Source of the DNA: Planctomycetota bacterium
Lineage (GTDB): Bacteria > Planctomycetota > UBA1135 > UBA2386
Length of the DNA stretch: 64,000 bases
Direction: 5' to 3'
Assembly: GCA_050181465.1 (NCBI GenBank)
Contig: JBFXDD010000005.1
Location: 125,587-189,586, forward strand
Shown here: piece by piece, positions 11,788 to 45,500 of the stretch
Layout: each line of letters starts with the position of its first letter
How positions within the stretch are numbered: the stretch's first letter is position 1
Made by a program: the position numbers and the translations under genes
Notes under the pieces: model-generated
Told to the model about the DNA's origin: nothing
The model's input: only the letters and a program-made list of their open reading frames with translations
Databases searched by the model: none

Positions 11788-12408
11788 ATGCATCTGACGC
11801 TCACCGACAAGCAGCTCAAGGTGCTGCGCCTCTTCCGGGATTTTCGTGACGAGCACGGTCTGTCGCCGACTCTGGAGGAAGCTGCGCAGATCCTCGGGGT
11901 GAGCAAGATCACCGTGCACGAGCACCTGCGTCACCTGGAGGACAAGGGCGCCGTCCGTCGCGACAAGTCCAAGGCGCGTTCCGTTTCGATCCTCTACGAC
12001 CCCGATGAGCCGCGATCCCGCGGGACGCGGACGGTCAGCGAGCTCCCCATCTTGGGAGTGGTCGCCGCGGGTCGACCGATCGAGGCCGTCGAACACGCGG
12101 AGGTCGTGCCGCTGACGGATCTCGTCCCGACCGGCGATGACCACTATGTGCTGCGGGTCCAGGGCAAGTCGATGATCGAGGATCACATCGACGACGGCGA
12201 CTACGTGGTCATTCGACGGCAGCAGGCAGCGAAGAACGGGGACATCGTGGTTGCGATCGTGGACGGCGAAGAGGCGACGTTGAAGCGGTACTTCTTCGAG
12301 CACGGCAGGGTTCGACTCCAGCCCGCGAATTCAGCACTCACGCCGATTTACCCGGAGCGCTGTGAGATCCGCGGGGTCTTGCGCGGCGTGATCCGCAAAA
12401 TGCGCTGA
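11788..12408 (+). CDS. lexA: LexA repressor (SOS regulator, S24 peptidase)
   Basis: N-terminal winged-helix region (LTDKQLKVLRLFRDFRDEHGLSPTLEEAAQILGVSKITVHEHLRHLEDKGAV), cleavage-site region VAAGRPIEA, and the Ser/Lys catalytic pair (VQGKSMIED ... TLKRY). Confidence 0.92.
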   Translation: MHLTLTDKQLKVLRLFRDFRDEHGLSPTLEEAAQILGVSKITVHEHLRHLEDKGAVRRDKSKARSVSILYDPDEPRSRGTRTVSELPILGVVAAGRPIEAVEHAEVVPLTDLVPTGDDHYVLRVQGKSMIEDHIDDGDYVVIRRQQAAKNGDIVVAIVDGEEATLKRYFFEHGRVRLQPANSALTPIYPERCEIRGVLRGVIRKMR

Positions 12409-12651: not shown

Positions 12652-12936
12652 ATGCCCGACGAACCCAATCGGCCAACCCCTCCCGAAGCACCCGGCCGAG
12701 TACAGAATCGACCCTTCGTGGTGTCGTGCTCACCCGGCAAGTACGCCTACTGCCAGTGCCAACGAAGCGCGCGATTCCCGTTCTGTGATGGAACTCACCG
12801 CGAATTGGTCGCCGCTGGAACCGACATCGGCCCCATGAAGGTGGTGCTCGACGACGAGAAGATGGTCGCCTGGTGCTGCTGCGGAAAGTCCGGGAAGAAG
12901 CCCTTCTGCGACGGATCTCACGCGCGAGCGGAGTGA
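12652..12936 (+). CDS. CDGSH iron-sulfur domain protein (two CDGSH motifs)
   Basis: Two copies of the C-x-C-x2-(S/T)-x3-P-x-C-D-G-(S/T)-H signature: CQCQRSARFPFCDGTH and CCCGKSGKKPFCDGSH. Confidence 0.85.
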   Translation: MPDEPNRPTPPEAPGRVQNRPFVVSCSPGKYAYCQCQRSARFPFCDGTHRELVAAGTDIGPMKVVLDDEKMVAWCCCGKSGKKPFCDGSHARAE

Positions 12937-13526
12937 GACTTGGCCGGGGTGGTCGCGGTCCTCACTCCCGCGGAGACGACCGACGCTTCCAACTCGAGTA
13001 GAGCCTGCTTGATCGCGACACCACCGGTGTAGCCGGTGGCCTTGCCGTCGCTACCGATCACCCGGTGACAGGGAACGACCAGCGCGACGGGATTGGTCGC
13101 GTTCGCGCGTGCCACCGCGCGCCATGCCGTCGGGCGACCGATCCTCACGGCAAGCTCGCGATAGGTGAGAGTCTTGCCGTAAGGAATCCTCCGAACGACC
13201 TTCCAGACCGACTCCTGAAACGGAGTGCCGCGGACTGCGACCGGAAGATCTACGACCTTCGACTTGCCGGTCACGAACTCACGCACGGCCGCAACTGACT
13301 TGGCGCACAGTCGCGGACGCTCCTCGATCGCCGAGAAACGCGATCGCAACTCCTCCAGCGCCGATTCCAGTTCGCTGGTCTCACTTCCTTCGGCCAGGAA
13401 GCGGAGCCCAACCAGGGCCTGTCCCGAATCGACCGCAACCAGAACGCGCCCGACGCTCGAGGTGCCGACCGACCAGGCGATCGGCTCGGCAGATTCGCGA
13501 TTCGAAGTGCGAGAGGTGGTTCTCAT
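12918..13526 (-). CDS. ogt: Methylated-DNA--protein-cysteine methyltransferase
   Basis: Active-site motif VPCHRVIGSDG, with the preceding region IPYGKTLTYRELAVRIGRPTAWRAVARANATNP. Start set at MRTTS (13526) and is uncertain. The 3' end overlaps the convergent CDGSH gene by 19 bp. Confidence 0.85.
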   Translation of the reverse strand: MRTTSRTSNRESAEPIAWSVGTSSVGRVLVAVDSGQALVGLRFLAEGSETSELESALEELRSRFSAIEERPRLCAKSVAAVREFVTGKSKVVDLPVAVRGTPFQESVWKVVRRIPYGKTLTYRELAVRIGRPTAWRAVARANATNPVALVVPCHRVIGSDGKATGYTGGVAIKQALLELEASVVSAGVRTATTPAKSHSARA

Positions 13527-13566
13527 GCGACAGCAGTGCGATCGCATGAGCAAGAAAAGCGCTCGC

Positions 13567-14685: not shown

Positions 14686-14728
14686 GGGACGGAACGATCG
14701 CGCGAAGTGCGCGCCGCTACAGATCATG

Positions 14729-15256
14729 TCACCGAGCCGCTTCTGCCGCCGAGGAAAGACTCTGCGTCGAGCGCCCGCGCAACGTGAACCACAAGCTCGG
14801 AAGCCCGAAGACGACGAAGGCCTGGAGGGAATCGAGAATCCCGAAGTCGCGCGGTCCGACCGTGCCGTGAACCTGCGCCGCTACCCGATCGACCACGTAA
14901 CCACAGCATGCGAGGAAGACCACCGCGGTCACGAGGCGGCCCGCGAACCACAGTCGGCGTGGGAACCATGCGGCGATGGCGAACAAGACGAACAGCCCCG
15001 CCACGCCCTGTCGTATCCACTCGCCGGACCGATCCTCGACCGCGGGACCGGTCAGCATCGCCAGCCCAGCCGCCAGGGAGATCGGCGCTACCACGAACAC
15101 CATCAGCGCTGAGCCGCCGAAGGCCACGGAGGCGCCGGCGGGAATCGCTGGTTCCGCCGCAAGATCCGCCGGCTGACTCTCGACGATCCCGCCCGTGACG
15201 CGGCTGGTTGGCGCGCATTCCTCGCGTCGATGAAAGCTCCCGAGCGTAGTCCCCAT
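14729..15256 (-). CDS. Small integral membrane protein, function unknown
   Basis: Four hydrophobic segments (e.g. SALMVFVVAPISLAAGLAML, VAGLFVLFAIAAWF, LVTAVVFLACCGYVV, LQAFVVFGLPSLWF). The start is uncertain: ATG 15256 was chosen and 15103 is an alternative. Confidence 0.35.
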   Translation of the reverse strand: MGTTLGSFHRREECAPTSRVTGGIVESQPADLAAEPAIPAGASVAFGGSALMVFVVAPISLAAGLAMLTGPAVEDRSGEWIRQGVAGLFVLFAIAAWFPRRLWFAGRLVTAVVFLACCGYVVDRVAAQVHGTVGPRDFGILDSLQAFVVFGLPSLWFTLRGRSTQSLSSAAEAAR

Positions 15257-15334
15257 TCGCGGCTGGAACTGTATCGGCAAGAATCCCTCTGCGACCGTGA
15301 CGCGTACGCGGGCTTCGCGGCGTCTCTCCCTCCG

Positions 15335-17803
15335 ATGGCTCAGCACGACCAACCGCCAGATGACGCTTGGCTTCGTCGACTCGCGAGGTCATTGACCGCG
15401 GACGAAGCCACCGCACTGGATCTGAGCCAAGACACTCTGGTGGCGCGGGAGATCCATGCCCCGGGCGCCGGCCGAGCCTGGCTCGGAACCACCTTGCGAA
15501 ACCTCTGGGTGTCACGTCATCGCGAGCGCCAGCGACGTGTTCGTCGCGAAACCTTGGCAGCTCGCTCCGAGTGCTTGCCGGCCACCGACTACATCGTCGA
15601 GAGAATTGAACTTCGAGAGAGCGTGCTCGCCGCGGTGCGCGAGCTCGAGGACATCTACCGGGAAGCCATCGTGCTGCGCTACTTCGAAGACCTGACCCCG
15701 ATCGAGATCGCGCGTCGCAGCGGTTGCCCAGTGCGCACGGTGCACACGCGACTGCATCGCGGGCTGCAGCGGCTCCGCGAGAAGCTCGATCGACGCTTCA
15801 AGGATCGCACTCGCTGGACCACTGCGCTCCTCGCGATCCCACCGAAGAAGTCCGTCTATCTCGCCGCTTGGATAACCATGCTCACGAAGACCAAGGTAGT
15901 CGCTCTGACCGCGATGGCCGTGTTGCTTGGGCTGATCTCGCTCTGGCTGCAAGGAGATCCGACCTCACTCCCCGAGAACACATCGATCGAGTTGCCGATC
16001 GTTGGGGACGCCGAGAAGCAGACCGAGACTGCGACCGGAGTTCGCGTGCCGACTCCGGTCCTTCCTGAGATCGAGGAGTCTGATCTGCATGACGCTTTGT
16101 CGTCGGTGATCGCCAACTTGGGGTCGACACCCACGATCCCGATAGGCGGCATGGTGGTGGATCTGCTTGCTCGACCAGTCCCTGGAGTCGAGGTCTATTA
16201 CGACGACTTCTCCGGTCACTCGCGATCGAAGTCGACGCCGATCCTCACGGACGAAGAGGGTCGCTTCGAGTTGAAGCGCGCTGCGAGCATGGGACACGTC
16301 AAGATCGGCGGTCCGCAATGGGTGGCCGTTCTCGAACCACACATCTACGACAACGACCGCGAGCATCTCGATCTGACCATCGTCGTCGCGCCGGCGATCG
16401 AGCTGCGCGGCACCACCGTAGACGAGAACGGCGAGCGGGTGCCCGGCGCGAGTCTGTGGCTGAACTTCACCAAGGACCTTCGCAGCGGCATCCCTCGCAT
16501 TCTCGATCGCGACGTATCCGTCACATTCACCGCCACGAGCGACGAACAAGGTTCGTTTCGATTCGAGGCCGCACCGAACAGTGACCTCGTCGAGGTTGTC
16601 GCCCATGCCAAAGGCCGACACGGTGCGACCATGAGTCTGACGAGCGTTCTTCGAGGCGAGCCGATCGTGCTCAAGCGATCTAGATCCGGCGACGAACTCC
16701 GTGGGCTTGTCTTGACTCGCGATGGTGCATCCGTCACGGCTGCAACGGTGACTCTCTTCGACCTCACGGTGACGGTCGATGATTCGGGCAACTTCGCCCT
16801 GCCGCTCTGGCAAGTCGAGCAAGACTCGTCGATGGATCGACCTGCAGAGCTCGTGGTCTCCTCGCCGGGCCGCTCCCCATCGCGACTGTCGGCGATCGGT
16901 CCTCATTGGCGAACACGCGCGGCCTGGCCCGCAGACCTCACTCTCACGCTGGGCGAGCGAGCCCTGACCATCCGCGGGCGCGTCGTGAGGCACGACGGCT
17001 CGCCGTTCCCATCACCCCATGTCGACTTCGTCGCACCCGCTCCCCCATGGATCGAACCGGCGAGCGGATCGCTCGGAAACGGTGTCTACGTTCAGAGGAA
17101 CCTCGACTCGAGTCTCGGGGAGTTCGAAACCCGTCCCGTCGCCGCGGGATGGTATCGACTGCGGGTGATCGTCTTCGAATCCTTGGAGGTGCACGACACA
17201 GACCCCATCGAGGCAGGTCGAACGGATGTCGAGATCCGCTTGCCGCATCGCGAGAAGTGGCCGCACCTGCGTGGCCGGGTCGTCGATCGTTCCGGGAATC
17301 CGGTGCCTGGTGCCGATTGGATCATCGAACGCCCACATCCCGACCATGGCGATGGCTCGGTGGTGCTCAACGGCCATTGGCACAACGCGGATCCACTCGG
17401 TCGAATCGAGCACGAACCACTCGATCGGTCGGCGCAGTTCCTTTGCGTCAAGGCCGCGGGCATGGCCGAGTGGAAGAAGTACGCGATCGCCGAGTTGGCC
17501 CGCGAAGGCGAGTTTCGGGTGATCGTTCCCGTCGGCTGCCGCGCCAGCATCCAACTCTCGACACGTGATCCGGCGGTGACGATGGCCCGATTGTTCGATG
17601 TCAAAGGTGACGCGTCGCCGGTCGTCATCACCCGCGGCAATATCGCGTTCGGAACGCGCGATATCGGGCTGACCGACGGCGCGTCCGAGAGTTTCGTGGC
17701 GCTCGACGACTGCGTCGAACTGGTGCTCTACTCCGACGGCGCGATCGTCCAGCGGATCCCGATCCAATTGCGTCCGGGAGTGGACACGATCCTTCGCAAT
17801 TGA
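15335..17803 (+). CDS. ECF-type sigma-70 family protein fused to a transmembrane helix and a ~590-aa extracytoplasmic domain of repeated carboxypeptidase-regulatory-like (Ig-like) modules
   Basis: Start at ATG 15335 (MAQHDQ). A sigma2-like region (DLSQDTLVA...AWLGTTLRNLWVSRHRE) and sigma4 (YREAIVLRYFEDLTPIEIARRSGCPVRTVHTRLHRGLQRLREKL) are followed by a TM helix (VVALTAMAVLLGLISLWL). About five modules of the form xxGxVVDxxGxPVPGAxV...GxFxL follow. Confidence 0.7.
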   Translation: MAQHDQPPDDAWLRRLARSLTADEATALDLSQDTLVAREIHAPGAGRAWLGTTLRNLWVSRHRERQRRVRRETLAARSECLPATDYIVERIELRESVLAAVRELEDIYREAIVLRYFEDLTPIEIARRSGCPVRTVHTRLHRGLQRLREKLDRRFKDRTRWTTALLAIPPKKSVYLAAWITMLTKTKVVALTAMAVLLGLISLWLQGDPTSLPENTSIELPIVGDAEKQTETATGVRVPTPVLPEIEESDLHDALSSVIANLGSTPTIPIGGMVVDLLARPVPGVEVYYDDFSGHSRSKSTPILTDEEGRFELKRAASMGHVKIGGPQWVAVLEPHIYDNDREHLDLTIVVAPAIELRGTTVDENGERVPGASLWLNFTKDLRSGIPRILDRDVSVTFTATSDEQGSFRFEAAPNSDLVEVVAHAKGRHGATMSLTSVLRGEPIVLKRSRSGDELRGLVLTRDGASVTAATVTLFDLTVTVDDSGNFALPLWQVEQDSSMDRPAELVVSSPGRSPSRLSAIGPHWRTRAAWPADLTLTLGERALTIRGRVVRHDGSPFPSPHVDFVAPAPPWIEPASGSLGNGVYVQRNLDSSLGEFETRPVAAGWYRLRVIVFESLEVHDTDPIEAGRTDVEIRLPHREKWPHLRGRVVDRSGNPVPGADWIIERPHPDHGDGSVVLNGHWHNADPLGRIEHEPLDRSAQFLCVKAAGMAEWKKYAIAELAREGEFRVIVPVGCRASIQLSTRDPAVTMARLFDVKGDASPVVITRGNIAFGTRDIGLTDGASESFVALDDCVELVLYSDGAIVQRIPIQLRPGVDTILRN

Positions 17804-17843: not shown

Positions 17844-19613
17844 TCAACCGCCGAGATCCGTGGTCAGCAACCAGCTCTGACGATGCGCCAGCTGCGCGGA
17901 AGTCGGCAAGTCAACGCCGACGATGCTCACCTTGCCGGGTCGCATCGAACCGGGCTCGACTTCAATCGTTTCGATCTTGCCGCGCCTTGCCAGCAACACC
18001 GCGACCTTGCTCGCCGACTTGGCGCGCGCCGTCCAGATCGAGTCGAAGGCCTTGGGCTCGACGCGCAATCCATCGATCGCAAGGATCTCGTCGGAAGGGA
18101 ATACTCCCGCGAGATCCGCGGGAGAACCGTCCTTGACCGCCGCCGCTCGCGTGCTGCCGACGTCGAATCGCACGCCGAATTCCGGGACCGTCGAAGCACG
18201 GGTGTCGAGTCGCAGGCCGAACAGTTCGAGCGCAGCGTCGACATCGGGATCGAATGGACCCTCGATCCAGGCTTCGACTTGTGATGCGAGCGAACGACCT
18301 GCCGCTTGGTCGATGGCAGCGATCACGTCCTCGAAGTCGTAGCCGCGCCCCTGCTGCCAGGTGGAAGCCCACAGCGCTCGCACGGCGTCGTCGAGCGTTC
18401 GAGTGCCGGCACTCGCGCGGCGAATCGCCGCATCGATGAGGAAGGCCGCGAGAGCGCCGTTCGTGTAGTAGTTCTGGGAGACGTTGCGCGTGCTCTCGTC
18501 GGGGCGATACAGGAGCAACCACGCGTCGAAACTGGAAGCGCCGAGAGAGAGTCGACGTCGACCGGGATTGTCGAGCATCGCATCGACATGCGAGGCGAGT
18601 CGCGACAGGTAACGCCGGACACTCATCACTCCCGCGCGGCGACACAGCAAGTCGTCGAAGTAGGCAGTGAAGCCTTCGGCGACCCACAACAATCGAGTGG
18701 GGTTCTCCGTCTCGTAGTCGTAGTTCCAGAACTCACGCGGTCGCATCCGCTTCACGTTCCACGCGTGCAGATACTCGTGGGCGATCAGGGACAGGAAGTC
18801 CTCGTACTCCTCTCGATCGTCGAAGGTGTGGCGAGGTGCCAGCAATACGGAACTGTCGCAGTGCTCCAGGCCGCCGTGACCTTGATCACTGAACAGCGAG
18901 AGGAATGCGTAGGAGGTGAATGGCAACGATCCGCCGAAGACTGCGGCCGTGACCTCGAGCACCGATCGCAGGTCTCGCGGGAAGTTCGCCGGCCAGGCGA
19001 AGGGCTCCAGACCGGCAGCGACGAAGTGATGGGGCACTCCATCGATCGCGACCTCACAGCGTCGACTTCCGCCGACCAGAACCGGGGTATCCATCGCGTG
19101 GTCGAGGTCGGCAAGACTCACCTCCGCGACCAGCGCACTCACGCGCGAAGCCTCGATCCCACCGGCAAACACGAGTTGATCGGGGCCGGCGAGCCTGATC
19201 TGCAGCGACGCAGAACAATCGCGCGCTGGTTGGCCACCCGCACCGATGGGCCAGAGCAACACGTTCGCAGCGTTCCAGAACGCGAGATCAGGCTGGACGT
19301 AGCTGGTCCTAACCGTGAGGTCGCGGGCGTAGACCGACCAGCGGAGGTCGAGCGTGCCGTCGGCGAGCACCGGAACGCGCCAACGATTCTTGGATCGCTT
19401 CGCGCACGCAACCTCGCCTCCGTCGAGGGTCCTGGCGCGAACGTCGCGCACGAGGCGCGCGAACTCGCGCACCAGGTAGCTCCCGGGGGTCCACACCGGC
19501 AGGAAGACCTCGGCCGACCCGCCCTTGTCGCTCGTGACCTCGCAGCGCAACCGGAAGTGGAGGAGTCGACGGCGGACGTCGCTCAGGTCGACTTCGTATC
19601 GAAGGGGCGTCAC
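17844..19613 (-). CDS. M61 family metallopeptidase (glycyl aminopeptidase-like) with C-terminal PDZ domain
   Basis: Zinc motif context [17 protein letters not shown] and a C-terminal PDZ-like segment ([23 protein letters not shown]). The tracked ORF start (GTG 19649) overlaps the tRNA 3' end, so the in-frame GTG at 19613 ([10 protein letters not shown]) was preferred. The start remains uncertain. Confidence 0.8.
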
Positions 19614-19646
19614 GACAGGCCGGGGGCGCGCGGTTGCGATGGAATG

Positions 19647-19720
<74 letters not shown>

Positions 19721-21213: not shown

Positions 21214-21428
21214 GGCATTCGCTCCGGCAGCTCGTTGCCCCGGTGGAGTCAGTGCGGCATTGAGTGCGGTATGAGCCCCTTGTACGCTCCAAGCCGCTCT
21301 CCTCGACGGACTTCGGTCAGATTCCCAATTCGGGCCGAGCCCCTCTCACGCGCGGACTTTCCACACCGTTACGGAACATCCGGATCGGTCCTGGTCGTCC
21401 GAACCGCCATCCGCTGCCGTCTCCACTC

Positions 21429-22142
21429 GTGACCTTCAACGCCCAATCCTCCGACCTCGAACTGGTCGATGCCTGCCGTGATGTGCAGGACGATCGCTTC
21501 GAGACCGCCTTCGAGGAGCTGTATCGGCGCTATCGAGACCGGGTCTACTCGATCGCCTACCGGATGACCGGCTCGGCGAACGATGCGATGGACGTGGCCC
21601 AGGACACCTTCCGCGTCCTGTTCCTCAAGATCGGCACCTTCCGCGCCGACGCACTGTTCAGCACCTGGTTGTTCCGCATCGTGGTGAACTGCGCTTCTGA
21701 TCACCGTCGTCGTCTCCACGGACGACGACGCGCAGTTCCGCGAGCGATGACAGATCTCGGCCATGAACCGGATCCGACCGATCCCTCGGACAGCCCGATG
21801 GACGTGGCGGCCTCCAGCGAAGCCGGTGAGCACGTGCATGCCGCGCTCCTGCGGCTGAGCCCCAAGCTTCGGGCCGTGCTGGTGTTGCGCTACTTGGAGG
21901 GGCTCAGTTACGAGGACCTGGCGGTCGCGCTCGCCGTGCAGCCCGGCACGATCAAGTCGCGCCTCGCTCGTGCTCACGTTGCTCTCGAGCGAGAGCTCTC
22001 CGGAAGTGCGGAAGCGCTGGGGTTCGGGATCCCCGGCTCTCGCAGCCGATTCTCCAGCGCCGGTTCGGCCGACGAGTCGATGGACGATCCGCCGGCAGGC
22101 CCGGATTCGTCGGGCTCAAGCCGACGACAGGGGGTCGCATGA
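21429..22142 (+). CDS. ECF-type RNA polymerase sigma factor
   Basis: Sigma2 (FEELYRRYRDRVYSIAYRMTGSANDAMDVAQDTFRVLF...FSTWLFRIVVNCASDHRR) and sigma4 (LSPKLRAVLVLRYLEGLSYEDLAVALAVQPGTIKSRLARAHVALERE) are present. The start is taken as the in-frame GTG at 21429 and is uncertain. Confidence 0.8.
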   Translation: MTFNAQSSDLELVDACRDVQDDRFETAFEELYRRYRDRVYSIAYRMTGSANDAMDVAQDTFRVLFLKIGTFRADALFSTWLFRIVVNCASDHRRRLHGRRRAVPRAMTDLGHEPDPTDPSDSPMDVAASSEAGEHVHAALLRLSPKLRAVLVLRYLEGLSYEDLAVALAVQPGTIKSRLARAHVALERELSGSAEALGFGIPGSRSRFSSAGSADESMDDPPAGPDSSGSSRRQGVA

Positions 22143-22846
22143 GCCCGCGGGAATCGATCCTCGATCGACTGCCGATGTCGAACGCCGAGTTGGCGGCACT
22201 CGAAGCCGATCCCACGGTGTCGCCCTCGGACCTGGAGTTCGCCCGCGCCGCTTCACGACACATCGCCGCGCTGCGCGCACTGCCGGCGGCGCCGGCGGTC
22301 GATTGGAGCGCGGTTGGCAGTGACTCGGTCGGCCGCAACACGGCTGCGCCGCGTCCGTCGGCGAGCCGCGGGCCCAAGGTCACGCTTCCTGGCCTGGAAG
22401 CCTTGCACGAGTCGATCGCGGACGAGTCAGCCGCGAGGTTGCCGGGGTCGGTGAAGGCGATTCTCTCCCAGCCGCTCACCCCGCCTCGCGAGATCGACTG
22501 GAGTGCCGCGGTGCTGGACCACCTGCAAGGTTCGCCGCTGCGGAGTCGACCGGACGCCGTGGGCAGAGCCATTTCCCCGCCGTCCCACGCGACCCCGGGC
22601 TGGCTCTGGCAGCGAATCCGCGGCGATGTGAAGGAGCTGCGCTCGCGCACGCGTCGAGTTCGCGGCGCTTGGGTGGCCATGGCCGCGAGCCTGATGCTCG
22701 GCGTTTGGGCCGCCACGATTCTCCTCGGTCCGGATCGCTCGGAGCGCACGTCGCTGACGATTTCTTTCCAACGGGTCGACCAACCCTTCGTCTCCGGCTT
22801 CTCGACAGGTTCCATTCTCGCGGAGGTGCGACGTGGTTCGCGTTGA
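22139..22846 (+). CDS. Putative membrane-anchored anti-sigma factor (positional call)
   Basis: The ATG overlaps the sigma gene stop (ATGA). It has a single TM helix near the C-terminus (AWVAMAASLMLGVWAATILLG). No zf-HC2 motif was seen. The role is inferred only from position after an ECF sigma gene. Confidence 0.35.
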   Translation: MSPRESILDRLPMSNAELAALEADPTVSPSDLEFARAASRHIAALRALPAAPAVDWSAVGSDSVGRNTAAPRPSASRGPKVTLPGLEALHESIADESAARLPGSVKAILSQPLTPPREIDWSAAVLDHLQGSPLRSRPDAVGRAISPPSHATPGWLWQRIRGDVKELRSRTRRVRGAWVAMAASLMLGVWAATILLGPDRSERTSLTISFQRVDQPFVSGFSTGSILAEVRRGSR

Positions 22847-23936
22847 CTCGGCACGGCGGTCGACCTGCGTCACGCTGCTCGCGGTCCTGACCACGCTGTT
22901 GGTCAGCTCGACCGATCGTGCAGTCGCTCAGACGCAGTCGCCGGGCGAAGTCACCTTCGCGTCGATCGCGAACGCGCGACACCGGACCTGGGCTGAGATT
23001 CGCCAGACTCGGTCCGTGCTCCACGTCGGCGGGACGTCCTCGAGCGGTGGTTCCGGAAGCTCCCAGCCGAGCCTGTCCTGGGACTCTGTGTCCGAGTCCT
23101 TGATCCTGGCACCTGATGCGCCCGATGGCTCCTCGCGCTTCCGCTTGGACTTCCTCGGGATCCCCGGCCAGATCCTCGATCCAGTCGAGCATTCCCTTCG
23201 GGCCGCGACCCATGCGTCCCAGGCGGGCTTCCTCCACCAGTTCGGCGGTTTCCAGATCGCTGATCCGACGCGGGCAGCGCAGTCCTACCGGATCGTCCCC
23301 ATCGATCGACGAGTTCGTCTCTCGCGCCCCACGATCCGCGTCGCCGTCGTTCCGATTCGACTCGGCCGCTCGGCATGGATCCTCGAGCTGGATGCGGCGA
23401 CTCACTATCCGCTCTATTCGGCGGAGGTCTCTGCCTTCGGATCGATCGTCGGCACTCTCGAGGTCACGAGCTTCACCCTCACCGACCCGCGCTCGGTCGA
23501 CTCGGTCGAGTGGTGGGAGCCGTCCTCGCTGCTGCGCACTTACGGTTCCGTTTCTGCTGCGGTCGGATCCCTCGACGGTACGCCGCGTCCGATTCTGCCG
23601 GAGCCTGCCGACCTGCCAGAGGGTTTCGACTTCCTTCAGGCTCGCACCGTGTTGAACGACCTGCGCGCGGAGTCGAGCCTGGTGCTGATCTACGGGGATG
23701 GGATCGCCTCGATCTTCGTGGTCGAGACCTTCGGCGTCCCTGCGCCGAGTCTCCCAAGTCCGGTGCCCGGAAGCGGAACCAAGCCCTACGCCGTGTTCTT
23801 CTTCCACGACCAGAGTTCGCTCCAGCTCATGTTCCAAGTGGGCGGAGTTCAGACGATCGTGATCGGCGCAACTGGCGAGTTCGGCGTCCTCTCGCTCACC
23901 GAGCGTTTGCTCGAGCGAGCAGTCGGCGTTCGCTGA
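22833..23936 (+). CDS. Secreted protein, third gene of the sigma operon (possible RseB/MucB-like role, unverified)
   Basis: It overlaps the previous gene by 14 bp and has a signal-like N-terminus (CVTLLAVLTTLLVSSTDRAVAQ). The size and position resemble RseB/MucB-type periplasmic regulators, but I cannot confirm homology. Confidence 0.35.
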   Translation: MVRVDSARRSTCVTLLAVLTTLLVSSTDRAVAQTQSPGEVTFASIANARHRTWAEIRQTRSVLHVGGTSSSGGSGSSQPSLSWDSVSESLILAPDAPDGSSRFRLDFLGIPGQILDPVEHSLRAATHASQAGFLHQFGGFQIADPTRAAQSYRIVPIDRRVRLSRPTIRVAVVPIRLGRSAWILELDAATHYPLYSAEVSAFGSIVGTLEVTSFTLTDPRSVDSVEWWEPSSLLRTYGSVSAAVGSLDGTPRPILPEPADLPEGFDFLQARTVLNDLRAESSLVLIYGDGIASIFVVETFGVPAPSLPSPVPGSGTKPYAVFFFHDQSSLQLMFQVGGVQTIVIGATGEFGVLSLTERLLERAVGVR

Positions 23937-24127
23937 ATCAGTCGCAGAAATCGGACAGCGTCGCGCGAGCGCGACCCGCTGGTCGGACAGATCGGACTCG
24001 GACCGGTCGACGATTTCGGATCGATCCCGGCAAGACTCCTTCGCAAGGGTCGGTCCGTGCGTCGATGGTTTCGCCGCACATTGGCATCCCGGCTGCTTCC
24101 TGGTCTCTCAGCCCCCAGGAGACACCG

Positions 24128-24550
24128 ATGGATTCCGAACGCTTCCCTGATTCTCGCGACCAAGCCAACACTGCTTCCCGGGAATACCGGACCAAGCTGC
24201 TGACCAAGCTCAACTGCCTAATCGCCGTTCTCGACGTCGCCCTCGCGAAGGTCGGTCGGAGCATGGAAGAGCCCGGAGCCAACAGCGAGCGCCTGACGCG
24301 CATCCGAACCAACCTCGAGAACACGTTGGCGATCTGTCATCGAGCTCGACGGACCCTTCAGCGAGCCATGGAGGGCGGTGCGGTAGAGAACAGCGCCGAG
24401 GCCGCGCGGCGGCGCATGAGCTATCGCGACTACGTCGAACTGACCAGCATCGAGGAGTACCGCAAGTTCAAGACACTGCCGCCGATCTCGGCCGAGGAAC
24501 TTACGACGACCGACCTCGACGACCTCCTTCGTCGACTCAGCGGGAGTTGA
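24128..24550 (+). CDS. Small helical hypothetical protein (140 aa)
   Basis: The ATG at 24128 is preceded by AGGAG 7 nt upstream (cccAGGAGacaccgATG). The sequence is predicted helical (LTKLNCLIAVLDVALAKV, LENTLAICHRARRTLQRAM). No family was recognised. Confidence 0.45.
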   Translation: MDSERFPDSRDQANTASREYRTKLLTKLNCLIAVLDVALAKVGRSMEEPGANSERLTRIRTNLENTLAICHRARRTLQRAMEGGAVENSAEAARRRMSYRDYVELTSIEEYRKFKTLPPISAEELTTTDLDDLLRRLSGS

Positions 24551-25132
24551 TCCGCGTCTCCTTGACGCATCGCCCCGTGGCCGCCGCTTCGCCACCACGG
24601 CTGGTGGTGCCGGTGTTCAAGAACTCCTGAGTGCCCTGCGGAGTCGCTGAGCAGAGTCTTCCCGGCTCGCGCGGCTGCGACGGCCGAGCCGACGGCGCGA
24701 CATCGGCGCATCCGAACTCTCTTCCAGGACTCTAGAGCGTCGGCTCACGACGATTCCCCACCTCGGAGCGCGCGTCCTGTCACCGCGAATCGGCCCCATT
24801 CCTCGCCTGTCGGGTGCCCCGTCGAACGTTCTCCACAGTTCGAACGACCTGAAGATCAGGTCGGTGACAAGCCACGAAACCAAGACCAACAACAAGACAT
24901 CGCTCGGCCAGGAGTCCGGCAAGCAGCGGCGGCTGCTCCCATCGACGGCGAAGCTCGCGAAACCTCGCAGCGACCCGCTCCTGAAGGCATTCGACGGTGT
25001 TCCCCAGGGGCCGTGCAGCTACATTCTCGGGGCTCGCTAGGCCGCACCCTCTCCCCTACCTCGAACCGTCGCGGGGAGAGGTTGGCGTGCTCCTCGAGCC
25101 TCCGTGCACCGGCCCTTTCCCCGCCCCAAGAC

Positions 25133-26226
25133 ATGAAGATCCTCTGCGATCGGCAAGAGTTGCAGGATGCCTTCGCCGCTGTCAGTGGCATCCCGCCCGT
25201 CAAGAGCACCAAGACGGTCCTCCAGAACGTCTTGCTGCGTGCCGAGCCCGAGCGTGTCGTGTTCCTCGCGACCGACAACGAGATGACCGCACGCGCCACG
25301 CTCCGGTCCGTGAAGGTATCGGAACCCGGCAGCATCCTGCTTCCCTGCCGAGAGACGAGTGCGCTGATTCGCGAACTGAGCGAGCCGACGGTCGCGATCA
25401 AGGCCAGTTCGGACCGCTGTCGGATCGAGAGTGGTTCCGGTTCGTTCGATCTCCTGAGTGCGGATGTCGATCAGTTCCCGCCGGAGCCCAAGCTGCAGGC
25501 CGAAGTCGAACTCGAGGTTTCGATGAAGGACATCCTGCAGATGTATCGGCGAACGTCCTTCGCCTGCGCCAAGGAAGAGACTCGTTACGCCATCAACGGT
25601 GTGCTCATCGATTTCGTCGACGGCTGTCTTCGGATGGTCGGCACCGATGGTCGTCGCCTCGCCCTCGCCTACACCAACATCGCCACCCAGGCTCCGCGCA
25701 TCCGAGCGGTGGTGCCGCTCCGCGCCCTGAATGCCTTGACCAAGGCGTTCGCCGACGACAGCGAAGCCATGTTGACGATCGGCATCGCGCGATCGCAGAT
25801 TCGCTTCGAAGCGGCTGGGAACCTGCTGGTTTCGCAGTTGCTGGACAACCGATTCCCCGACTACGAGCAGGTCATTCCGAAGGCCGCGGAGACGGTCATC
25901 GAAGTGGACCGACAGGAACTGGAACGCAACCTCCGCCGCGTTGCGGTCCTCGCTTCGAACGACATCCGCATGGTCGCTCTCGAATTCGCCGACGGCAATC
26001 TCGACATGCGCGCGGAGAGTTCCAGCGTCGGCAAGGCCCATCTCACGATGGCTGTCGACATGAAGGGCAAGCCCGTCAAGATGGGATTCAACCCCGACTT
26101 CCTCATCGAAGCCCTGCGCGTCTCCGAGTTGGACACGATTCGTATCGACGTCGTCGACGGTTCGGTTCCGATCAAGTGCGCGCTCGGTGAGTCCTATAGC
26201 TACATCCTCATGCCGATCGGCGCGTC

Positions 26227-26230
<4 letters not shown>
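25133..26230 (+). CDS. dnaN: DNA polymerase III beta subunit (sliding clamp)
   Basis: Start at ATG 25133 (MKILCDRQELQDAFAAVSGIPPVKSTKTVLQNVLL). It has typical clamp features (FLATDNEM, RYAINGVLIDF, MVGTDGRRLA, SYILMPI). Confidence 0.92.
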
Positions 26231-28975
<2,745 letters not shown>

Positions 28976-29009: not shown

Positions 29010-30470
29010 ATGGACCGATTCCGACAGGCCTTCGGTATCGCGACGATCGTCGCCGCGATCGCGCTCGGCGCGTGGTTCTTTCGTCTCTTGGCAGACGACG
29101 GCAAGTCGGGACTCTTCGAACTGCGGATCGAGTTTCGCGACGTTCGCGGACTCAAGTCCGGCGCTGATGTTCGGTACCGCGGAGTTCGCGTCGGCACGGT
29201 GACGAGCGTTTCGATCGGACTCGACGGCGAGAAGGGTGTGGTCTCCCTGCTGCTCGAACCCGATGGCTCTCGACTCGCGCGGCAGGCGAGTCGCTTCTGG
29301 GTCGTCGTCCCTCGCTTCGGCGGCCTCACATCGGGCGCGACCGGGCTCGACACCCTCGTGCGCGACGCCTACGTAGCGTTCCTCACCGAGGAGATCGAAT
29401 CGCCGGAACTCGCGGCCGGCAGCCTGCTCGCCGGGCTCGAGCGTCCGCCGGTCGACCGAGCCATGGCGGACCTCGATCCTATCGAACGCGGCGACTTGCT
29501 GATGACGCTCCTCGTTCTCGAGAACGGCGGCATCGATGCCGGCGCATCCATTCAGTTTCGAGGGATCTCCGTGGGCGAGGTGCGGCGCGTCGAACTCGCG
29601 TCGACCGGAACACACGTCGAACTCACGCTGCGAATTCGCGAACGATTCCGTACGACGGTCACGGACAAGACCAGCTTCTGGGTCGCCAAGCCACGCGTGT
29701 CGGGTGCCTTGCTGCGCGGCATCTCGTTGGACGATGTCGGCGCCTTGCTCAGCCCGTTCATCGGCTACCACAACCAGGACGAGCGCGGTGTGCCCGTTCC
29801 GGACGGCTATCGAGCGGTCGCGCGGGAGGAACGGCCCGACACCTCGGCCAGCGAGATCCCGGCCAGCGCTCGCGAGCAGCCGCCGACACAACCGCGACTC
29901 GCGTCGGGCGAGGTCATCGCCGTCGAAGTGATCTACGAGTGCACCGAGGAGGACTGGCTGAGTCCGAACGACGAGGAGAAGCGACGCGGCTCTGGCGTGA
30001 TGTTCGTCGATTCTCAGGGTCGCACGGCGGTGTTGACGGTGCGCAGCCTCTGTGACGGTGCCTCGTTCATGGCCGACACCTTCGGTGGTGTCGAGATCAA
30101 GAGTGAGGCGATTCGCGTGGTGGTCCCGAAGGTCGGCGTGTTTCGAGCCGGCCGCACCTGGATCGACCCGGCGGGCGGGGAGCTCGCGTTGCTGATCCTG
30201 GACGGCGTCCCACCCGACCTCCCGGCGACCTTGTCCTCCGCGATGGAGTTCGAGGCCGACGTCGACACTGCGGACGGGTTCTTGATCGCCGGTGCCGAAC
30301 ATCCTGCAACGCTCACCAACGGACTACCCTCGTTGGCGGATGCCCGCGGCGGGATCCTCGTGCGTGGCGGGACCGTGGTCGGACTCGTGGGCCGAAGCAC
30401 GTCGGATGCTGCCAAGCCGGCGCGAATCGCCCTGAGTTCGGTTCCGGCCGGGCTGAGGCCGCGGCCGTGA
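29010..30470 (+). CDS. MCE/MlaD-PqiB-like protein (N-terminal TM, two MCE domains) with C-terminal degenerate trypsin-like domain
   Basis: TM helix AFGIATIVAAIALGAWFF. MCE-type stretches are VRGLKSGADVRYRGVRVGTVTSV, RFWVVVPRFGGLTSGATGLDTLV, IQFRGISVGEVRRVEL and SFWVAKPRVSG. The C-terminal ~170 aa resembles a chymotrypsin fold (GSGVMFVDSQGRTAVLT, ELALLILDG, GGILVRGGTVVGLVG) but lacks the catalytic His and Ser. Confidence 0.7.
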   Translation: MDRFRQAFGIATIVAAIALGAWFFRLLADDGKSGLFELRIEFRDVRGLKSGADVRYRGVRVGTVTSVSIGLDGEKGVVSLLLEPDGSRLARQASRFWVVVPRFGGLTSGATGLDTLVRDAYVAFLTEEIESPELAAGSLLAGLERPPVDRAMADLDPIERGDLLMTLLVLENGGIDAGASIQFRGISVGEVRRVELASTGTHVELTLRIRERFRTTVTDKTSFWVAKPRVSGALLRGISLDDVGALLSPFIGYHNQDERGVPVPDGYRAVAREERPDTSASEIPASAREQPPTQPRLASGEVIAVEVIYECTEEDWLSPNDEEKRRGSGVMFVDSQGRTAVLTVRSLCDGASFMADTFGGVEIKSEAIRVVVPKVGVFRAGRTWIDPAGGELALLILDGVPPDLPATLSSAMEFEADVDTADGFLIAGAEHPATLTNGLPSLADARGGILVRGGTVVGLVGRSTSDAAKPARIALSSVPAGLRPRP

Positions 30471-31984
30471 GCGATTCCTCGCCGTCGCTCGCGATCGAAC
30501 TTCGCGACTTCGGCCTCGCCTACCGAGGACGGGCCAAGGAGCGGATCGTCTTCGTCGACGTCGATCTGAGCATTCCCTCCGGGTCCTTCCTTCTGCTCGT
30601 CGGCGAGAGCGGCTCGGGTAAGTCCACGCTGCTCCGCCTGTTGTGCGGGCTGTGGGAGAGTCGCGAGCCCGCTCCGCGAGTACGCGGCAGCGTGCGGGTG
30701 CTCGGCGAGAACGTCGGCGTGCACTATCCGCGTCGCCTCCGTGGTCAGGTGCAGGCGGTTCTGCAGGACGAGGGTCTGCTCGACGAACTTTCCCCGCGCG
30801 GCAACGTGGAACTCGCACTTCGCGTCGCGAAGCGATCGCCGACGCTCGCACTTGGCTTGCTCGCCCAGGTGGGCCTCGAACATCCTCCAGAACGCGTTCA
30901 CGAACTGTCCGGCGGCATGCGAAAGCGCGTGGCGGTCGCACGGGCGCTCGGCGGTGGCCCGAGACTCTTGTTCTTCGATGAGCCGACGGCCGGACTCGAT
31001 GCCGAATCGGCGCGCGCGATCGCGACGTTGTTGGTCGACACGCATCGTTCGACTGCGGGGGCCCGTACGACGATCGTGATCACGCATGACCTGAGAGCCT
31101 TCGAGGGCCTGCACGACGGAGTCCTCCACATCGATCCCGACTCGAAGTCGCTGCGATGGATTCCACCCGGAGAGCCGATCGTGGACGACGATCGGGACGT
31201 GGAGATCGAGGCGACCGTGGAGCCGCTCTTCGATCTCCGCGGTCTGCAAACGCTGCTCTACGGCGCGGCTGACTTCGGGGCGACGATCGGCAACGCGATC
31301 TGGCGGATCGTGCCGCGATGGCCCGAACTCGCTGCCGGAACCATTCGTCGCTACATCATCGAAGCTGCCGTCTTCGTCGTCATTGGGTGCGCGACCGTCG
31401 GCGGACTCGCGATGTTCTTCGCGCTGCGGAACAATCCGCTCGAAGGAGCCTTCACCGGAGCGCTGATCACCGGATCGGGGACCGTTCTCGTCGCGGTGCT
31501 CATCCCGCTCCTCGCCGGATTCTTCTTCACCGCGCGCGTCGCCGCCGGCGCGGCTGCGCGACTCGGAACGATGAAGCGCACCGGCCAGATCGATGCGCTA
31601 CGCATGATGGGGATCCGGCCGGTCGACTACTTGTTGATCCCGCTGCTCTGGGGTGTCTGTGTTGCACTGCCGATCGTCACTGCCTGCGGAGTCGTCTTTG
31701 CGGGACTGGCATCACTCTTCGCAGCACAACTCGTGAGCGGAATCTCGGCGTACGGATGGGCACGAGCCTTCATCGTGGAACTCGATCGAGGCGACATTCG
31801 TTTTGTTGCCTACAAGGCCCTGATCTCGGGCTTCCTCGTGGCCATCGTCACCTATTTCTTGGCCACGGGCCCGAAGCGGTCCGGTCTCGATGTGGGACGA
31901 GCGGTCAACGGCAGCATCGTGTTCGGGATGACCGCGGTCTTGCTGGTGCACGCCGCTCTGATCCTCCTGCATTACGCGCGCTAA
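30467..31984 (+). CDS. ABC transporter with fused ATP-binding (MlaF-like) and permease (MlaE-like) domains
   Basis: The GTG overlaps the MCE gene stop (GTGA). It has Walker A GESGSGKST, signature LSGGMRKRVAVARAL and Walker B LLFFDEP. A multi-TM MlaE-like C-terminal half follows (GSGTVLVAVLIPLLAGFFFTARVAAGAAARLGTMKRTGQIDALRMMGI). The TAA stop lies in repeat copy A. Confidence 0.75.
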   Translation: MSDSSPSLAIELRDFGLAYRGRAKERIVFVDVDLSIPSGSFLLLVGESGSGKSTLLRLLCGLWESREPAPRVRGSVRVLGENVGVHYPRRLRGQVQAVLQDEGLLDELSPRGNVELALRVAKRSPTLALGLLAQVGLEHPPERVHELSGGMRKRVAVARALGGGPRLLFFDEPTAGLDAESARAIATLLVDTHRSTAGARTTIVITHDLRAFEGLHDGVLHIDPDSKSLRWIPPGEPIVDDDRDVEIEATVEPLFDLRGLQTLLYGAADFGATIGNAIWRIVPRWPELAAGTIRRYIIEAAVFVVIGCATVGGLAMFFALRNNPLEGAFTGALITGSGTVLVAVLIPLLAGFFFTARVAAGAAARLGTMKRTGQIDALRMMGIRPVDYLLIPLLWGVCVALPIVTACGVVFAGLASLFAAQLVSGISAYGWARAFIVELDRGDIRFVAYKALISGFLVAIVTYFLATGPKRSGLDVGRAVNGSIVFGMTAVLLVHAALILLHYAR

Positions 31985-42551: not shown

Positions 42552-45500
42552 CTATCGCGCAGCGTTCAGGGCGAGCTGCGCACGTTCGATGCGCCGATCG
42601 AGAACCGCATCGACGCGCAGTGCAGGGCAAATCTCGCGCAATCGCTCGACGACGGACTCGAGCTCGGTCTTGGCGTTTGCTTCGCCGACGCGCAGCGCCG
42701 CAAGCCCGGTCAGGAGTTGCAGCTCGAGGCGGTCGCGAAGTGCTGGGGACGGTGTCGCGGGATCGACCGCGTCCGCGACGGTTGGAGCGCCACGCACTCG
42801 ATCGAGTGCTCGGCGCAGTCCCGCTTCCTCGTCGAGGGCGAGCGCTTCGAGCAAGGTGAGTTCGAGCAGAACCGGATCGTCGCTGGCTTCGTCGACCGGA
42901 TCCGTCCCTCGCAACGACCGCTGGACCGAGGTCAGCCGCGGCAGATCGCCGATCTCCGCGGCGGCGATCGCCTCCAGGTGAAGCATCGTGCGCACGTAGG
43001 TGGCCTGGTCGGCATGCCCCAAGAGCTCTGCCAGGGAGGAGCCGAGTGCGTCTCGAGTGCGGCTGACGAGATCGAGCGCCGCGCGCGCGTTTCCGCGGTC
43101 GAGTTCGACTCCCGCCCTCACCGATCCGGCGACAACGAGGTCGCCCGCCCGCTCGAAGTTGCCGCGTGCGCCGTTCCACGAGTCCATTGCGCGCCGCATT
43201 GCTTCCTCGGCGAGCGCCTCTGCTTCGGCCGTGCGTTCGTCGCCGCGCTCGACGTCGGCCAAGTTGGTGAGGAAGTTGATCAGGAGTCCGCCGCTCGCCG
43301 GCAGTCCCTTGCGGGCGAGTTCGAGCGCGCGGGACAGGTGACGTCGCGCCTCGGCGAGATCTCTCCGCAGCCCGCGCTCCGCCAGGGCATGGCCGAGATT
43401 GCCGGTGAGCATCATGAACGAGCGCTGTGCTGCCCCATCGCCCGGGAACTCCATGGCGACCGCGAAGGCCGCCTCCACCGCGTCGCGGAAGGCGTCGATC
43501 ACCTGATCGTCGATTGCCTCGGTGGCCATGAAGATCGCGAGTTCGCTGGTCGCCGTCGCCTTCATCGCGCGGTACAGCGGGACTTCGGGGTGATCGCGGC
43601 AGAGGCCGTCGACGGCGGCGACTTGGGCGCGACCGGCGGCGATCGCTTCCGCGGAGCGACCCGATCGATAATCGAGGTGACCCTGGAACCGATGCAACTC
43701 GACTGCGGCTTCGCGGAGGTCGAGGTCGATCTCCTGGTTCAGGTCGAAAGCGGCCAGCGCTTGCCGGCCGAGTTCCAATGCTGCGTGCGCACGTTCGGGG
43801 TCTCGCCGCATCAACTCGCAGCCGGCGATTCCGACCTGCTGGATCGCGCGCATGCGCTCGACCCAGCGTAGTTCATGGTTTGCCCCCTTCAATCGATCGA
43901 GCAACTGTGAGCACTCGCTCCAGCGCTCGATCGCCAGGTCCGGGTTTCGCTTGCGCTGGAGCATCGCGGCGTTGTGCAGAGCTGCTGCCAAGTCGCGCTG
44001 GGCGCCGGGGTCGGTCGGACTTGCTGCGACCACGGCGCGGCGGTCGGCGATCGCCAGCGCGAAAGCCGCCTCTGCATTCGCTTCGTCGCCGTCGGCGTTG
44101 GCGACCTGGGCGAGAACGTCGTGCGCAGCGGCGCGCTCGGCCATCGCGCGAGGTTCGCTCACGACCACGCTCGTCAGTTCGGCGATCGCGGTAGTGGCGT
44201 GCGCCTTGGCCGCGGTCGTGTTGCCGAGCGTGAACTCGAGACGCGCGAGCACGACACTCGCTGTCGCCGCTTGGAAGCGCGCGCGCAGATCGTCGCGGCG
44301 ATCCTCACGAAGGCGGCCGTAGAACGAGATCGCGTCTTCGAGGATGGCACGTCGAACCTTGTCCGTGCGCGGCACACTCTCCAGCCGAGCGTCGCCGACC
44401 CGCTGAAGCAGCACATCGACCGCTTCCAGAGCACTCGCGAAGTCGCGTTCCGCAGCATCGCGCGCCGTGCGTTCGGCATCGAGTGCGAGTCGTGCGGTGG
44501 TCGCGGCGTCGTTCGCGCGCCTGGCGAAGACGACGCTGACGATCAGCCCGGCGATGAGTGCGATCACGACCGCCGCCGCTGCCCCGACCTCCAGGCGATG
44601 GCGACGCAGGAAGCGCGCCAAGCGATAGCGCCGACTCGGCGGCCCGGCCGAGACCGGCTCATTGGCGAGGTAGCGCCGAAGGTCGGCAGCGAACTCGTGC
44701 ACCGTCGGATACCGACGTTCGCGATCCTTCGCGAGTGCCATCATGCAGATGTGATCGAGATCACCGCGCAATGCGCGCATGAGTTCGCGAGTCTCGTTCG
44801 TGCGCTCGACTCCCTTGGTGCCGCCCCTCGACAGCCGAGTGGACAGGCGACGACTCGGGGTCGGGGGTTCCTCTTCGTTGAGGATCCGATGCAGGCGATC
44901 CGGATCTCCACGCAGTCTCTCCGATGGGAACGGAAGCTCGCCGGTCAACAGCTCGTAGAGGATCACGCCCAACGACCAGACGTCGGTGCGGAGATCGATG
45001 TCGAGTGCGTCGCGACCGGCCTGCTCCGGGCTCATGTATTCCGGTGTGCCCAGAACCACTCCCATCATCGTGTGCAGCGTGGCATTGCCGATCCGATGAT
45101 CCATCGCCTTGGCGATCCCGAAGTCGATGATCTTCGGGATCGGACGACCGTCACTCTCCGCCACCAAGATGTTGGACGGCTTGAGGTCGCGATGGATGAT
45201 GCCTTTCTGGTGCGCGTGTTGCACACCGTCGCAGACGTCGAGAAGCAGGTCGATGCGCGCCTTAGCGGGCATGGACCTACGTTCGCAGTAGTCGGTGAGC
45301 GGCAGACCTGCGACGTGTTCCATCGCGAACCACGGGCGACCATCCGCGGTCGAGCCGGCGTCGAACACCTTGCAGATCGACGGATGGTTCATCACCGCGA
45401 GCGCCTGCTTCTCGATGGCGAAGCGGGTCAGCACCTCGTGGGTGTCCACCCCGCGCTTCACCAATTTGATCGCGACCTTGCGGCGGACCGGCTCGCGCTG

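Follow-up and report, generated by a model that had tools for sequence, protein, structure and literature searches.

The subject of this analysis is a gene on the forward strand of a 64,000-nucleotide stretch of contig JBFXDD010000005.1 from a Planctomycetota bacterium (hereafter the window), which encodes a membrane-anchored extracytoplasmic function (ECF) sigma factor of 822 amino acids. The gene is genuine, and the sigma factor, the membrane anchor and an extracytoplasmic string of beta-sandwich domains are confirmed to be parts of one polypeptide chain. This is exactly the architecture which an earlier note, made from the sequence of the window, had claimed, namely an ECF core followed by a single transmembrane (TM) helix and a large ectodomain of CarboxypepD_reg modules. 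In our judgement, the best-supported mechanism by which such a protein might be controlled is regulated intramembrane proteolysis that acts directly on the sigma factor, with a probability of about 0.6.

An uninterrupted open reading frame (ORF) on the forward strand spans positions 15230-17803 and could encode at most 857 amino acids. Translation from the ATG at 15335 yields the 822-residue product, which is identical to the proteins MGE0142530.1 and MGE3878325.1, both labelled at NCBI as 'MAG: sigma-70 family RNA polymerase sigma factor [Planctomycetota bacterium]', where MAG denotes a metagenome-assembled genome. Another pipeline has called the longer, 857-residue form (P0191). The start at 15335 is the better choice, because the orthologue at locus L001, which is 80% identical, begins with the same ATGGCTCAGCACGACCAG start and lacks a 56-bp segment that carries the alternative ATG at 15230.

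The N-terminal part of the protein has the composition of a group 4 (ECF) sigma factor, with regions 2 and 4 present and regions 1.1 and 3 absent. Pfam recognizes Sigma70_r2 (PF04542) at residues 12-68, with 25.8 bits against a cutoff of 24, and Sigma70_r4_2 (PF08281) at residues 95-147 (E 2e-13; PF04545, E 5e-9); sigma regions 1 and 3 have no Pfam match anywhere in the 822 residues. The NCBIfam model TIGR02937 (sigma70-ECF) scores 57.6 bits against its cutoff of 42.9. In an AlphaFold2 (AF2) model, which was built from a 38-sequence family alignment and has a mean predicted local distance difference test (pLDDT) value of 82, two helical sigma domains are connected by a linker and form a confident core with helices between residues 8 and 155, those of region 2 (8-20, 24-41 and 47-76) at pLDDT above 90. 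Foldseek searches of the PDB with this N-terminus recover SigL and SigH of M. tuberculosis and SigE of E. coli (probability 1.00, 19-32% identity), and ECF sigma factors within RNA polymerase complexes match the fold at 26-32% identity. Region 4 superimposes on the region 4 of known ECF structures with a root-mean-square deviation (rmsd) of 0.8-2.5 A, and the superpositions as a whole give an rmsd of about 5-13 A to polymerase-bound ECF sigma factors, compared with about 15-22 A to those bound by an anti-sigma factor.

Conservation within the family points in the same direction. Twelve positions are near-invariant among 151 aligned N-termini (D29, Q32, W49, R55, N56, R63, R68, E72, T135, V136, R142 and R148), and at four of them, D29, Q32, W49 and R63, no fewer than 148 of the 151 sequences share the named residue. 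The near-invariant signatures comprise DxxQ in region 2.2, RxWL..V.RN in regions 2.3-2.4 and TVxTRLxRG in region 4.2. Such signature residues argue for a working sigma factor rather than a PhyR-like decoy, and the sigma core therefore looks functional. The shortened N-terminal region which the earlier note had found unusual enough to examine proves to be a minor matter: the Pfam match covers profile positions 8-71 of the 71 of region 2, and the short N-terminus is common to the close orthologues P0002 and P0003.

Between sigma region 4 and the membrane lies a linker of about 38 residues, shorter than the spacing of roughly 50 residues estimated previously, which across the 151 sequences is conserved as strongly as the sigma core. 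Its most constant positions are W161 (146 of 151), R158 (137), G156 and G178 (126 each), L165 (118) and P167 (105), joined by L151, D152, D157, A164, M182, K185 and K187. AF2 predicts a single short helix at residues 158-166 (pLDDT about 77-93), followed by a stretch of about 20 poorly ordered residues (171-190). No anti-sigma domain is matched in the linker by Pfam or NCBIfam, and the four-helix domain of class I anti-sigma factors, which occupies about 80-90 residues, is not present in a segment of 38 residues with one short helix. A zinc-finger element of the ZAS-like type is likewise absent, in that residues 150-187 contain no Cys/His motif and no zf-HC2 match.

The TM helix itself, VVALTAMAVLLGLISLWL (residues 188-205; 187-204 in the AF2 model), is the only strongly hydrophobic segment of the protein. 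In a Kyte-Doolittle scan with 19-residue windows, all windows with a mean above 1.5 start at residues 180-190, with a peak of 2.15, and the next maximum outside the helix reaches 1.32 at residue 787. The 15 residues preceding the helix contain two lysines and no acidic residue, and the 15 residues following it contain three acidic residues and no basic one. This charge pattern obeys the positive-inside rule, and sequence rules therefore predict that the sigma domain lies inside and the repeats outside. Ala and Gly abound in the TM consensus of the 151 sequences, which ends in W204, and some relatives possess a weaker second hydrophobic stretch just ahead of the helix.

The extracytoplasmic part amounts to about 615 residues. 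It begins with a segment in which pLDDT falls below 50 (residues 205-247), with P213 conserved in 133 of the 151 family sequences, and continues with a helix at residues 248-263. Six beta-sandwich domains then occupy residues 267-821. Pfam detects CarboxypepD_reg (PF13620; E 1.5e-20) in four stretches, and an opening motif of the type G-x-V-x-D-x-x-G-x-P-V-x-G marks five modules, starting at residues 271, 359, 457, 548 and 647, in a region modelled mostly at pLDDT above 85. The sixth sandwich lacks this opening motif and is conserved in a subfamily of proteins of 800-860 amino acids (ITHGNxAxG ... DDxVxLVL ... LRP/LRN at the C-terminus). Foldseek matches of the ectodomain in the PDB are strings of Ig- or prealbumin-like domains, such as pilins, B. 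anthracis TIE, SpyCEP and the NOMO-containing BOS complex, and no catalytic signature was seen in the ectodomain. It looks like a rod of binding modules, and one may speculate that the rod could reach the wall or the outer membrane, or bind a polymer. Elsewhere in the window, a protein of 642 amino acids (48369-50297, forward strand) has a sub-threshold CarboxypepD_reg match (27.6 bits, cutoff 32.3) and may be another surface protein with the same kind of module.

The fusion recurs widely. A word-indexed search found 38 proteins which combine sigma and CarboxypepD_reg domains, and all named ones belong to Planctomycetota; colinear full-length homologues occur at 80%, 49% and 25-33% identity. 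The same type of search with residues 1-208 alone gave six weak matches, and phmmer, run exhaustively with these residues against 1.84 billion representatives, returned 28,325 matches at E<=1e-3, which correspond to ECF sigma factors in general. The 150 matches listed from the exhaustive search are 40-52% identical to the query, except for P0002 (83%) and P0003 (52%); they are mostly 800-1200 amino acids long, and their alignments mostly extend through the linker and the TM helix. When long members (at least 600 amino acids, n=152) were pooled from both searches, 143 of the 152 had a hydrophobic segment at residues 170-260. A Pfam census of 55 sampled listed representatives detected CarboxypepD_reg repeats in 49 and HTH_23 in 4; the 25 most frequent families reported for this sample do not include WD40. 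One member of 1124 amino acids, P0114, lies on a 9.4-Mb contig and is annotated as Archangium sp. (Myxococcota), so that the family is not strictly planctomycetal. The relatedness of the sigma core and the type of extension thus co-occur, which makes this a coherent family rather than a one-off; it appears to comprise at least about 150 clusters at 50% identity, and its conservation indicates that the fusion is under selection.

No gene for an anti-sigma factor is adjacent to the sigma gene in the window, in L001 or in four more distant homologue loci. The earlier note's statement to this effect therefore holds: on one side, a gene for a DUF1579 protein diverges from the sigma gene, and on the other, a gene for a PDZ-containing M61 peptidase converges on it. 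Gene order is kept only in L001, and the neighbours in the four more distant loci are unrelated.

That ECF sigma factors can carry TM-containing extensions was already acknowledged in the earlier note, and rightly so, as illustrated by ECF57, by ECF52 and ECF53 of Actinobacteria and by IutY (PMC8999054, PMC5411451). The closest described group by taxonomy and architecture is the planctomycetal ECF57, although membership is not established. According to supplementary file 4 of Casas-Pastor et al., ECF57 (originally ECF01-Gob) is found in Planctomycetes only and has an ECF core with a long, TM-containing C-terminal extension, and it is described there as having no nearby anti-sigma factor, no conserved genomic context and no conserved promoter motif (bioRxiv 10.1101/2019.12.11.873521). 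This description gives about two TM helices on average and, as a hallmark, a fully conserved Cys pair, with one residue in sigma2 and one in sigma4; some subgroups carry WD40 or homeodomain-like modules, and ECF57s3 has a 'conserved carboxypeptidase regulatory-like' domain (bioRxiv 10.1101/2019.12.11.873521). The group averages about five copies per genome (PMC7826278). Our protein shares with ECF57, so described, the planctomycetal source, a long C-terminal extension of the ECF core and the lack of an adjacent anti-sigma factor, of a conserved context and of a conserved promoter motif; its extension contains a TM helix, and its CarboxypepD_reg repeats recall the domain recorded for subgroup s3. 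It differs from the description in several respects. The family has no conserved Cys pair: no Cys column is conserved in the 151 aligned members, the maximum being 10 of 151 at residue 35, and neither C80 nor C131 of the query is conserved. Moreover, there is one strongly hydrophobic TM helix, compared with an average of about two in ECF57 (some relatives have the weaker second stretch mentioned above), the N-terminus of ECF57 is about 20 residues longer, and the WD40 modules of some ECF57 subgroups are not reported in the 55 sampled members, which are consistent only with the remark on s3.

The domain combination, which the earlier note had called unusual, is not so: it defines a family of at least about 150 clusters, and a CarboxypepD_reg-like domain has already been noted for ECF57s3 in ECF classification 2.0. 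The same note had considered that the protein would be unremarkable if it belonged to a well-characterized fused group. A described fused group does exist; however, none of its members has been characterized experimentally, and the Cys pair of ECF57 is missing here. Pinto and da Fonseca had already recognized, among planctomycetal ECF sigma factors, a clade whose long C-terminal extensions are very diverse (PMC7671368). The concept of a membrane-tethered ECF sigma factor, even in association with CarboxypepD_reg, is thus already in the literature, and the present analysis adds only a little, namely the size and coherence of the family, the absence of the Cys pair described for ECF57 and a juxtamembrane motif that is sharply conserved.

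Functionally, the model adopted here is IutY of Pseudomonas putida (ECF243). In this protein of 374 amino acids, one TM helix connects the ECF domain in the cytosol to a periplasmic domain of the FecR type, and the cytoplasmic side lacks an anti-sigma domain (PMC5411451). Prc first trims the periplasmic part of IutY to about 50 residues (PMC5411451; reviewed in PMC8999054), and variants that keep the TM helix are all inactive unless RseP cuts (PMC5411451). The two proteins share the order of sigma domain, single TM helix and periplasmic domain in one polypeptide. Unlike our protein, IutY is paired with a TonB-dependent transducer, IutA, of which no counterpart is adjacent here; in place of the FecR-type domain there are about 615 residues of prealbumin-like repeats without a FecR Pfam match, and the sigma cores are not specifically related. 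ECF52 and ECF53 (e.g., SCO4117) have C-terminal extensions with one or two TM helices, for which proteolytic activation is predicted, and the extension of ECF52 includes an extracytoplasmic carbohydrate-binding domain (PMC8999054). These groups are restricted to Actinobacteria and have a ZAS-like zinc finger between sigma4 and the TM helix, in contrast to the planctomycetal protein and its linker without a Cys/His motif. With pairs of the RpoE-RseA type, finally, the protein would share the passage of an extracytoplasmic signal across the membrane to an ECF sigma factor, probably via site-1 and site-2 proteolysis, but here there is no separate anti-sigma protein or domain and the sigma factor itself would be the protease substrate.

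From these parallels we infer proteolytic release, together with a signal, proteases and a regulon that would belong to it. In the resting state, the sigma domain would be held at the membrane and be inactive. A signal received by the ectodomain would expose the protein to periplasmic (site-1) trimming, whereupon a site-2 protease would cut in or near the Ala/Gly-rich TM helix and free a sigma fragment of about 20-23 kDa, which would bind core RNA polymerase and switch on its regulon. The layout of IutY and the TM-dependent requirement for RseP provide a direct precedent for such a scheme. Site-2 protease substrates typically contain small helix-destabilizing residues, with which the Ala/Gly-rich TM consensus of the family agrees. 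In addition, the authors who described ECF57, the closest group, made the same proposal in their description, where activation is ascribed to 'release from the membrane' (bioRxiv 10.1101/2019.12.11.873521).

Several observations weigh against proteolytic release. The invariant Trp motif of the linker is not explained by a simple tether-and-cut process and hints at an additional interaction. The AF2 arrangement of sigma2 and sigma4 is holoenzyme-like and not of a compact, inhibited type, and nothing in the model points to inhibition. Moreover, P0040 (locus L007) is a genuinely short member of 272 amino acids, which consists of a sigma core and a short C-terminal tail with no ectodomain repeats, and the large ectodomain is therefore not obligatory. 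No gene for a Peptidase_M50/RseP, Prc/CtpA or DegS-type protease lies within the window. The convergent M61-PDZ peptidase was considered as a site-1 protease and set aside, since a signal peptide is not evident in it and, among the loci compared, only that of the 80% orthologue keeps it next to the sigma gene.

Two other modes of control deserve consideration, both of which we regard as unlikely. The sigma factor could be active while tethered, bringing RNA polymerase to DNA near the membrane as membrane-bound activators of the ToxR or CadC type do, with the ectodomain acting through oligomerization or conformation and no proteolysis being involved. The C-terminus of sigma4 is surface-exposed in ECF holoenzyme structures, and the poorly ordered residues ahead of the TM helix as well as the holoenzyme-like sigma2/sigma4 arrangement would suit such a mode. 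ECF sigma factors have furthermore been recovered from detergent-soluble fractions of one planctomycete (PMC8567305). However, a membrane-bound active sigma factor has no experimental precedent, the IutY variants that retain the TM helix point the other way, and a tether of about 38 residues leaves little room for a polymerase of roughly 400 kDa on DNA. In the other mode, to which we give the same low weight, the GDRxxWxxALLP motif could be a built-in minimal anti-sigma element, which folds onto sigma4 or sigma2 and blocks the binding of core polymerase, the tether alone not being inhibitory. The motif would then have to be displaced for activation, be it by a signal that the TM helix relays as a conformational change or following proteolytic cleavage, and such a role is compatible with proteolysis as a second layer. 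A motif as conserved as the sigma core, its helix, modelled with fair confidence, and the existence of short anti-sigma peptides (e.g., CnrY and NepR), complexes of whose partner sigma factors are among the Foldseek matches, speak for it. Against it stand a length far below that of a class I anti-sigma domain, the lack of an anti-sigma Pfam or NCBIfam match in the linker, and a modelled sigma2/sigma4 arrangement that is not of the compact, anti-sigma-bound type. It is also rather unlikely that the family forms a distinct and unnamed ECF group apart from ECF57 proper, which would be defined by a single TM helix, CarboxypepD_reg rods, the missing Cys pair and the invariant GDRxxWxxALLP motif, the last serving as a minimal anti-sigma or protease-recognition element. 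If true, this would amount to a new principle of sigma regulation, with control exerted without a canonical anti-sigma domain or with activity while membrane-tethered.

Two further explanations concern the nature of the protein itself. That the N-terminal domain is a PhyR-type anti-anti-sigma decoy, which titrates another regulator at the membrane, is very improbable. Weak PhyR_sigma2 (PF22029) matches do occur in a few relatives, but the residues by which sigma factors bind core polymerase and recognize promoters hardly vary, TIGR02937 exceeds its trusted cutoff, the best structural matches are genuine ECF sigma factors in transcription complexes, and there is no receiver domain; we have rejected the decoy on these grounds. 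There is a negligible probability that misassembly or a frameshift has artificially fused a sigma gene with a surface-protein gene that follows it. Such an artefact could be suspected from P0042, a split member in which a sigma-TM protein of 310 amino acids is followed, 45 nt downstream, by a CarboxypepD_reg ORF of 715 amino acids. The ORF in the window is continuous, however, the same 822-residue product occurs in two NCBI MAG records, and the order of the parts is kept in the 80% and 49% identical orthologues and in well over a hundred more distant ones. These conservation data refute the artefact, and the frameshift or stop codon between the sigma part and the ectodomain that the earlier note had named as refuting the fusion is ruled out by the same order in full-length orthologues. 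Proteolytic release of a genuine, membrane-held sigma factor retains the greatest weight among the readings. The positions of the features are collected in Table 1.

Table 1. Features of the sigma factor gene and its upstream region (positions refer to the window, residues to the 822-amino-acid product).
Feature	Positions	Strand	Evidence
Membrane-anchored ECF sigma factor, complete gene (822 amino acids plus stop)	15335-17803	+	ORF list; NCBI identity; start shared with L001
Conserved upstream blocks ATCGGCAAGAATCC (15273-15286) and GCGACCGTGACGCGTAC (15291-15307)	15273-15307	+	Invariant versus L001
Sigma region 2 (residues 12-68), with DLSQDT and RAWLGTTLRN motifs	15368-15538	+	PF04542; column counts; AF2 helices
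Sigma region 4 helix-turn-helix (residues 95-149)	15617-15781	+	PF08281; PF04545; Foldseek
Cytoplasmic juxtamembrane linker (residues 151-187), motif LD..xGDRxxWxxALLP...G...MxxKxK	15785-15895	+	151-sequence columns; AF2; Pfam/NCBIfam
Single TM helix (residues 188-205), N-in/C-out (predicted)	15896-15949	+	Hydropathy; charge pattern; AF2; family segment
Low-complexity extracytoplasmic tether (residues 206-247, predicted disordered), then helix 248-263	15950-16123	+	AF2; P213 column
Five tandem CarboxypepD_reg (prealbumin/transthyretin-like) beta-sandwich modules	16133-17506	+	PF13620; opening motifs; AF2; Foldseek
Sixth, C-terminal beta-sandwich (residues 725-822)	17507-17800	+	Subfamily alignment; AF2 strands 726-821 at high pLDDT

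Upstream of the gene, a comparison with L001 shows long invariant runs in the gene-proximal half of the spacer only at the two conserved blocks and in a stretch that leads into the start codon; the rest of this half is poorly conserved. Both blocks are unique in the window, and no match to a sigma-70-type promoter was found in the upstream region. The blocks are a candidate promoter or 5'-leader element and could hold a promoter of the form GAATC-N17-CGTAC, of which the window holds no other convincing copy; we treat this as a lead only. A GGAAC sequence upstream was also considered as an autoregulatory ECF promoter and discarded, since it is not conserved in L001. The spacer as a whole (14727-15335, roughly 600 bp) contains only weak ORFs (207 amino acids on the reverse strand and 142 on the forward strand) without a Pfam match, and no gene is called in the matching region of L001.

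The upstream neighbours are encoded on the opposite strand and comprise, beyond the DUF1579 protein, an MGMT-type methyltransferase, a CDGSH protein and LexA; a gene for tRNA-Arg joins the M61-PDZ peptidase on the downstream, convergent side. As clues to a regulon or to partner proteins, conserved neighbours were dismissed, because only L001 is syntenic. LexA (11788-12408), the CDGSH iron-sulfur protein (12652-12936) and the O6-methylguanine-DNA methyltransferase-domain protein (12918-13553), all on the reverse strand, form a small cluster of the DNA-damage type; the gene calls of L001 include LexA and the methyltransferase, in unchanged order, but not the CDGSH protein. The gene for tRNA-Arg(CCG) (19646-19720, reverse strand) shares 4 nt with the M61-PDZ ORF (17844-19649, reverse strand) at the latter's listed GTG start, and the true start of the peptidase is probably further downstream; its length is 601 amino acids here and 589 as called in L001.

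A second, canonical-looking ECF sigma factor is encoded within 21264-23936 on the forward strand (Sigma70_r2, E 3e-16; Sigma70_r4_2, E 1.5e-13). Its stop codon overlaps by 4 nt the start of a gene for a 235-residue protein with one TM helix in its C-terminal half and no Pfam match, which is likely an anti-sigma factor. The resulting canonical-looking ECF/anti-sigma pair (21264-22846) lies 3.5 kb downstream of the anchored sigma gene. Next to it comes a gene for a 367-residue protein whose N-terminal part includes a hydrophobic segment, and L001 contains the corresponding three genes. From 23936 there is a gap of about 1 kb without a convincing gene call, after which come dnaN (25013-26230) and gyrB (26522-28975). 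The cumulative GC skew of the window has its minimum at 24-26 kb, and this minimum and the dnaN/gyrB context together suggest a chromosomal replication origin near 23936-28975. DnaA boxes are represented there by one near-consensus copy only (TTCTCCACA at 24829), which is not above chance.

Further along the window, an Mla-like lipid transport pair (29010-31984) consists of a 486-residue MlaD-domain protein and a 505-residue fusion, in which an ABC ATPase domain (residues 31-175) and an MlaE permease domain (residues 300-499) form a single polypeptide. The ATPase and the permease of Mla-type systems are usually separate proteins. On the reverse strand, 42552-45998 encodes a Ser/Thr protein kinase of 1148 amino acids (Pkinase, E 1e-43) with about 780 unannotated C-terminal residues, a large signaling protein of planctomycete style.

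For genome annotation, the result is ordinary: the NCBI annotation is right about the sigma identity and omits the membrane anchor and the ectodomain. For the biology of the phylum, its meaning lies in the abundance of membrane-anchored 'one-component' ECF sigma factors in Planctomycetota, a class that this locus illustrates cleanly with a single gene, the structure of whose product is well predicted. The conserved juxtamembrane motif that emerges from the family alignment is an obvious target for mutagenesis. Such proteins could also provide compact transmembrane sensor-to-transcription modules for synthetic biology, and learning how they are released or activated would account for a large share of planctomycetal signal transduction.

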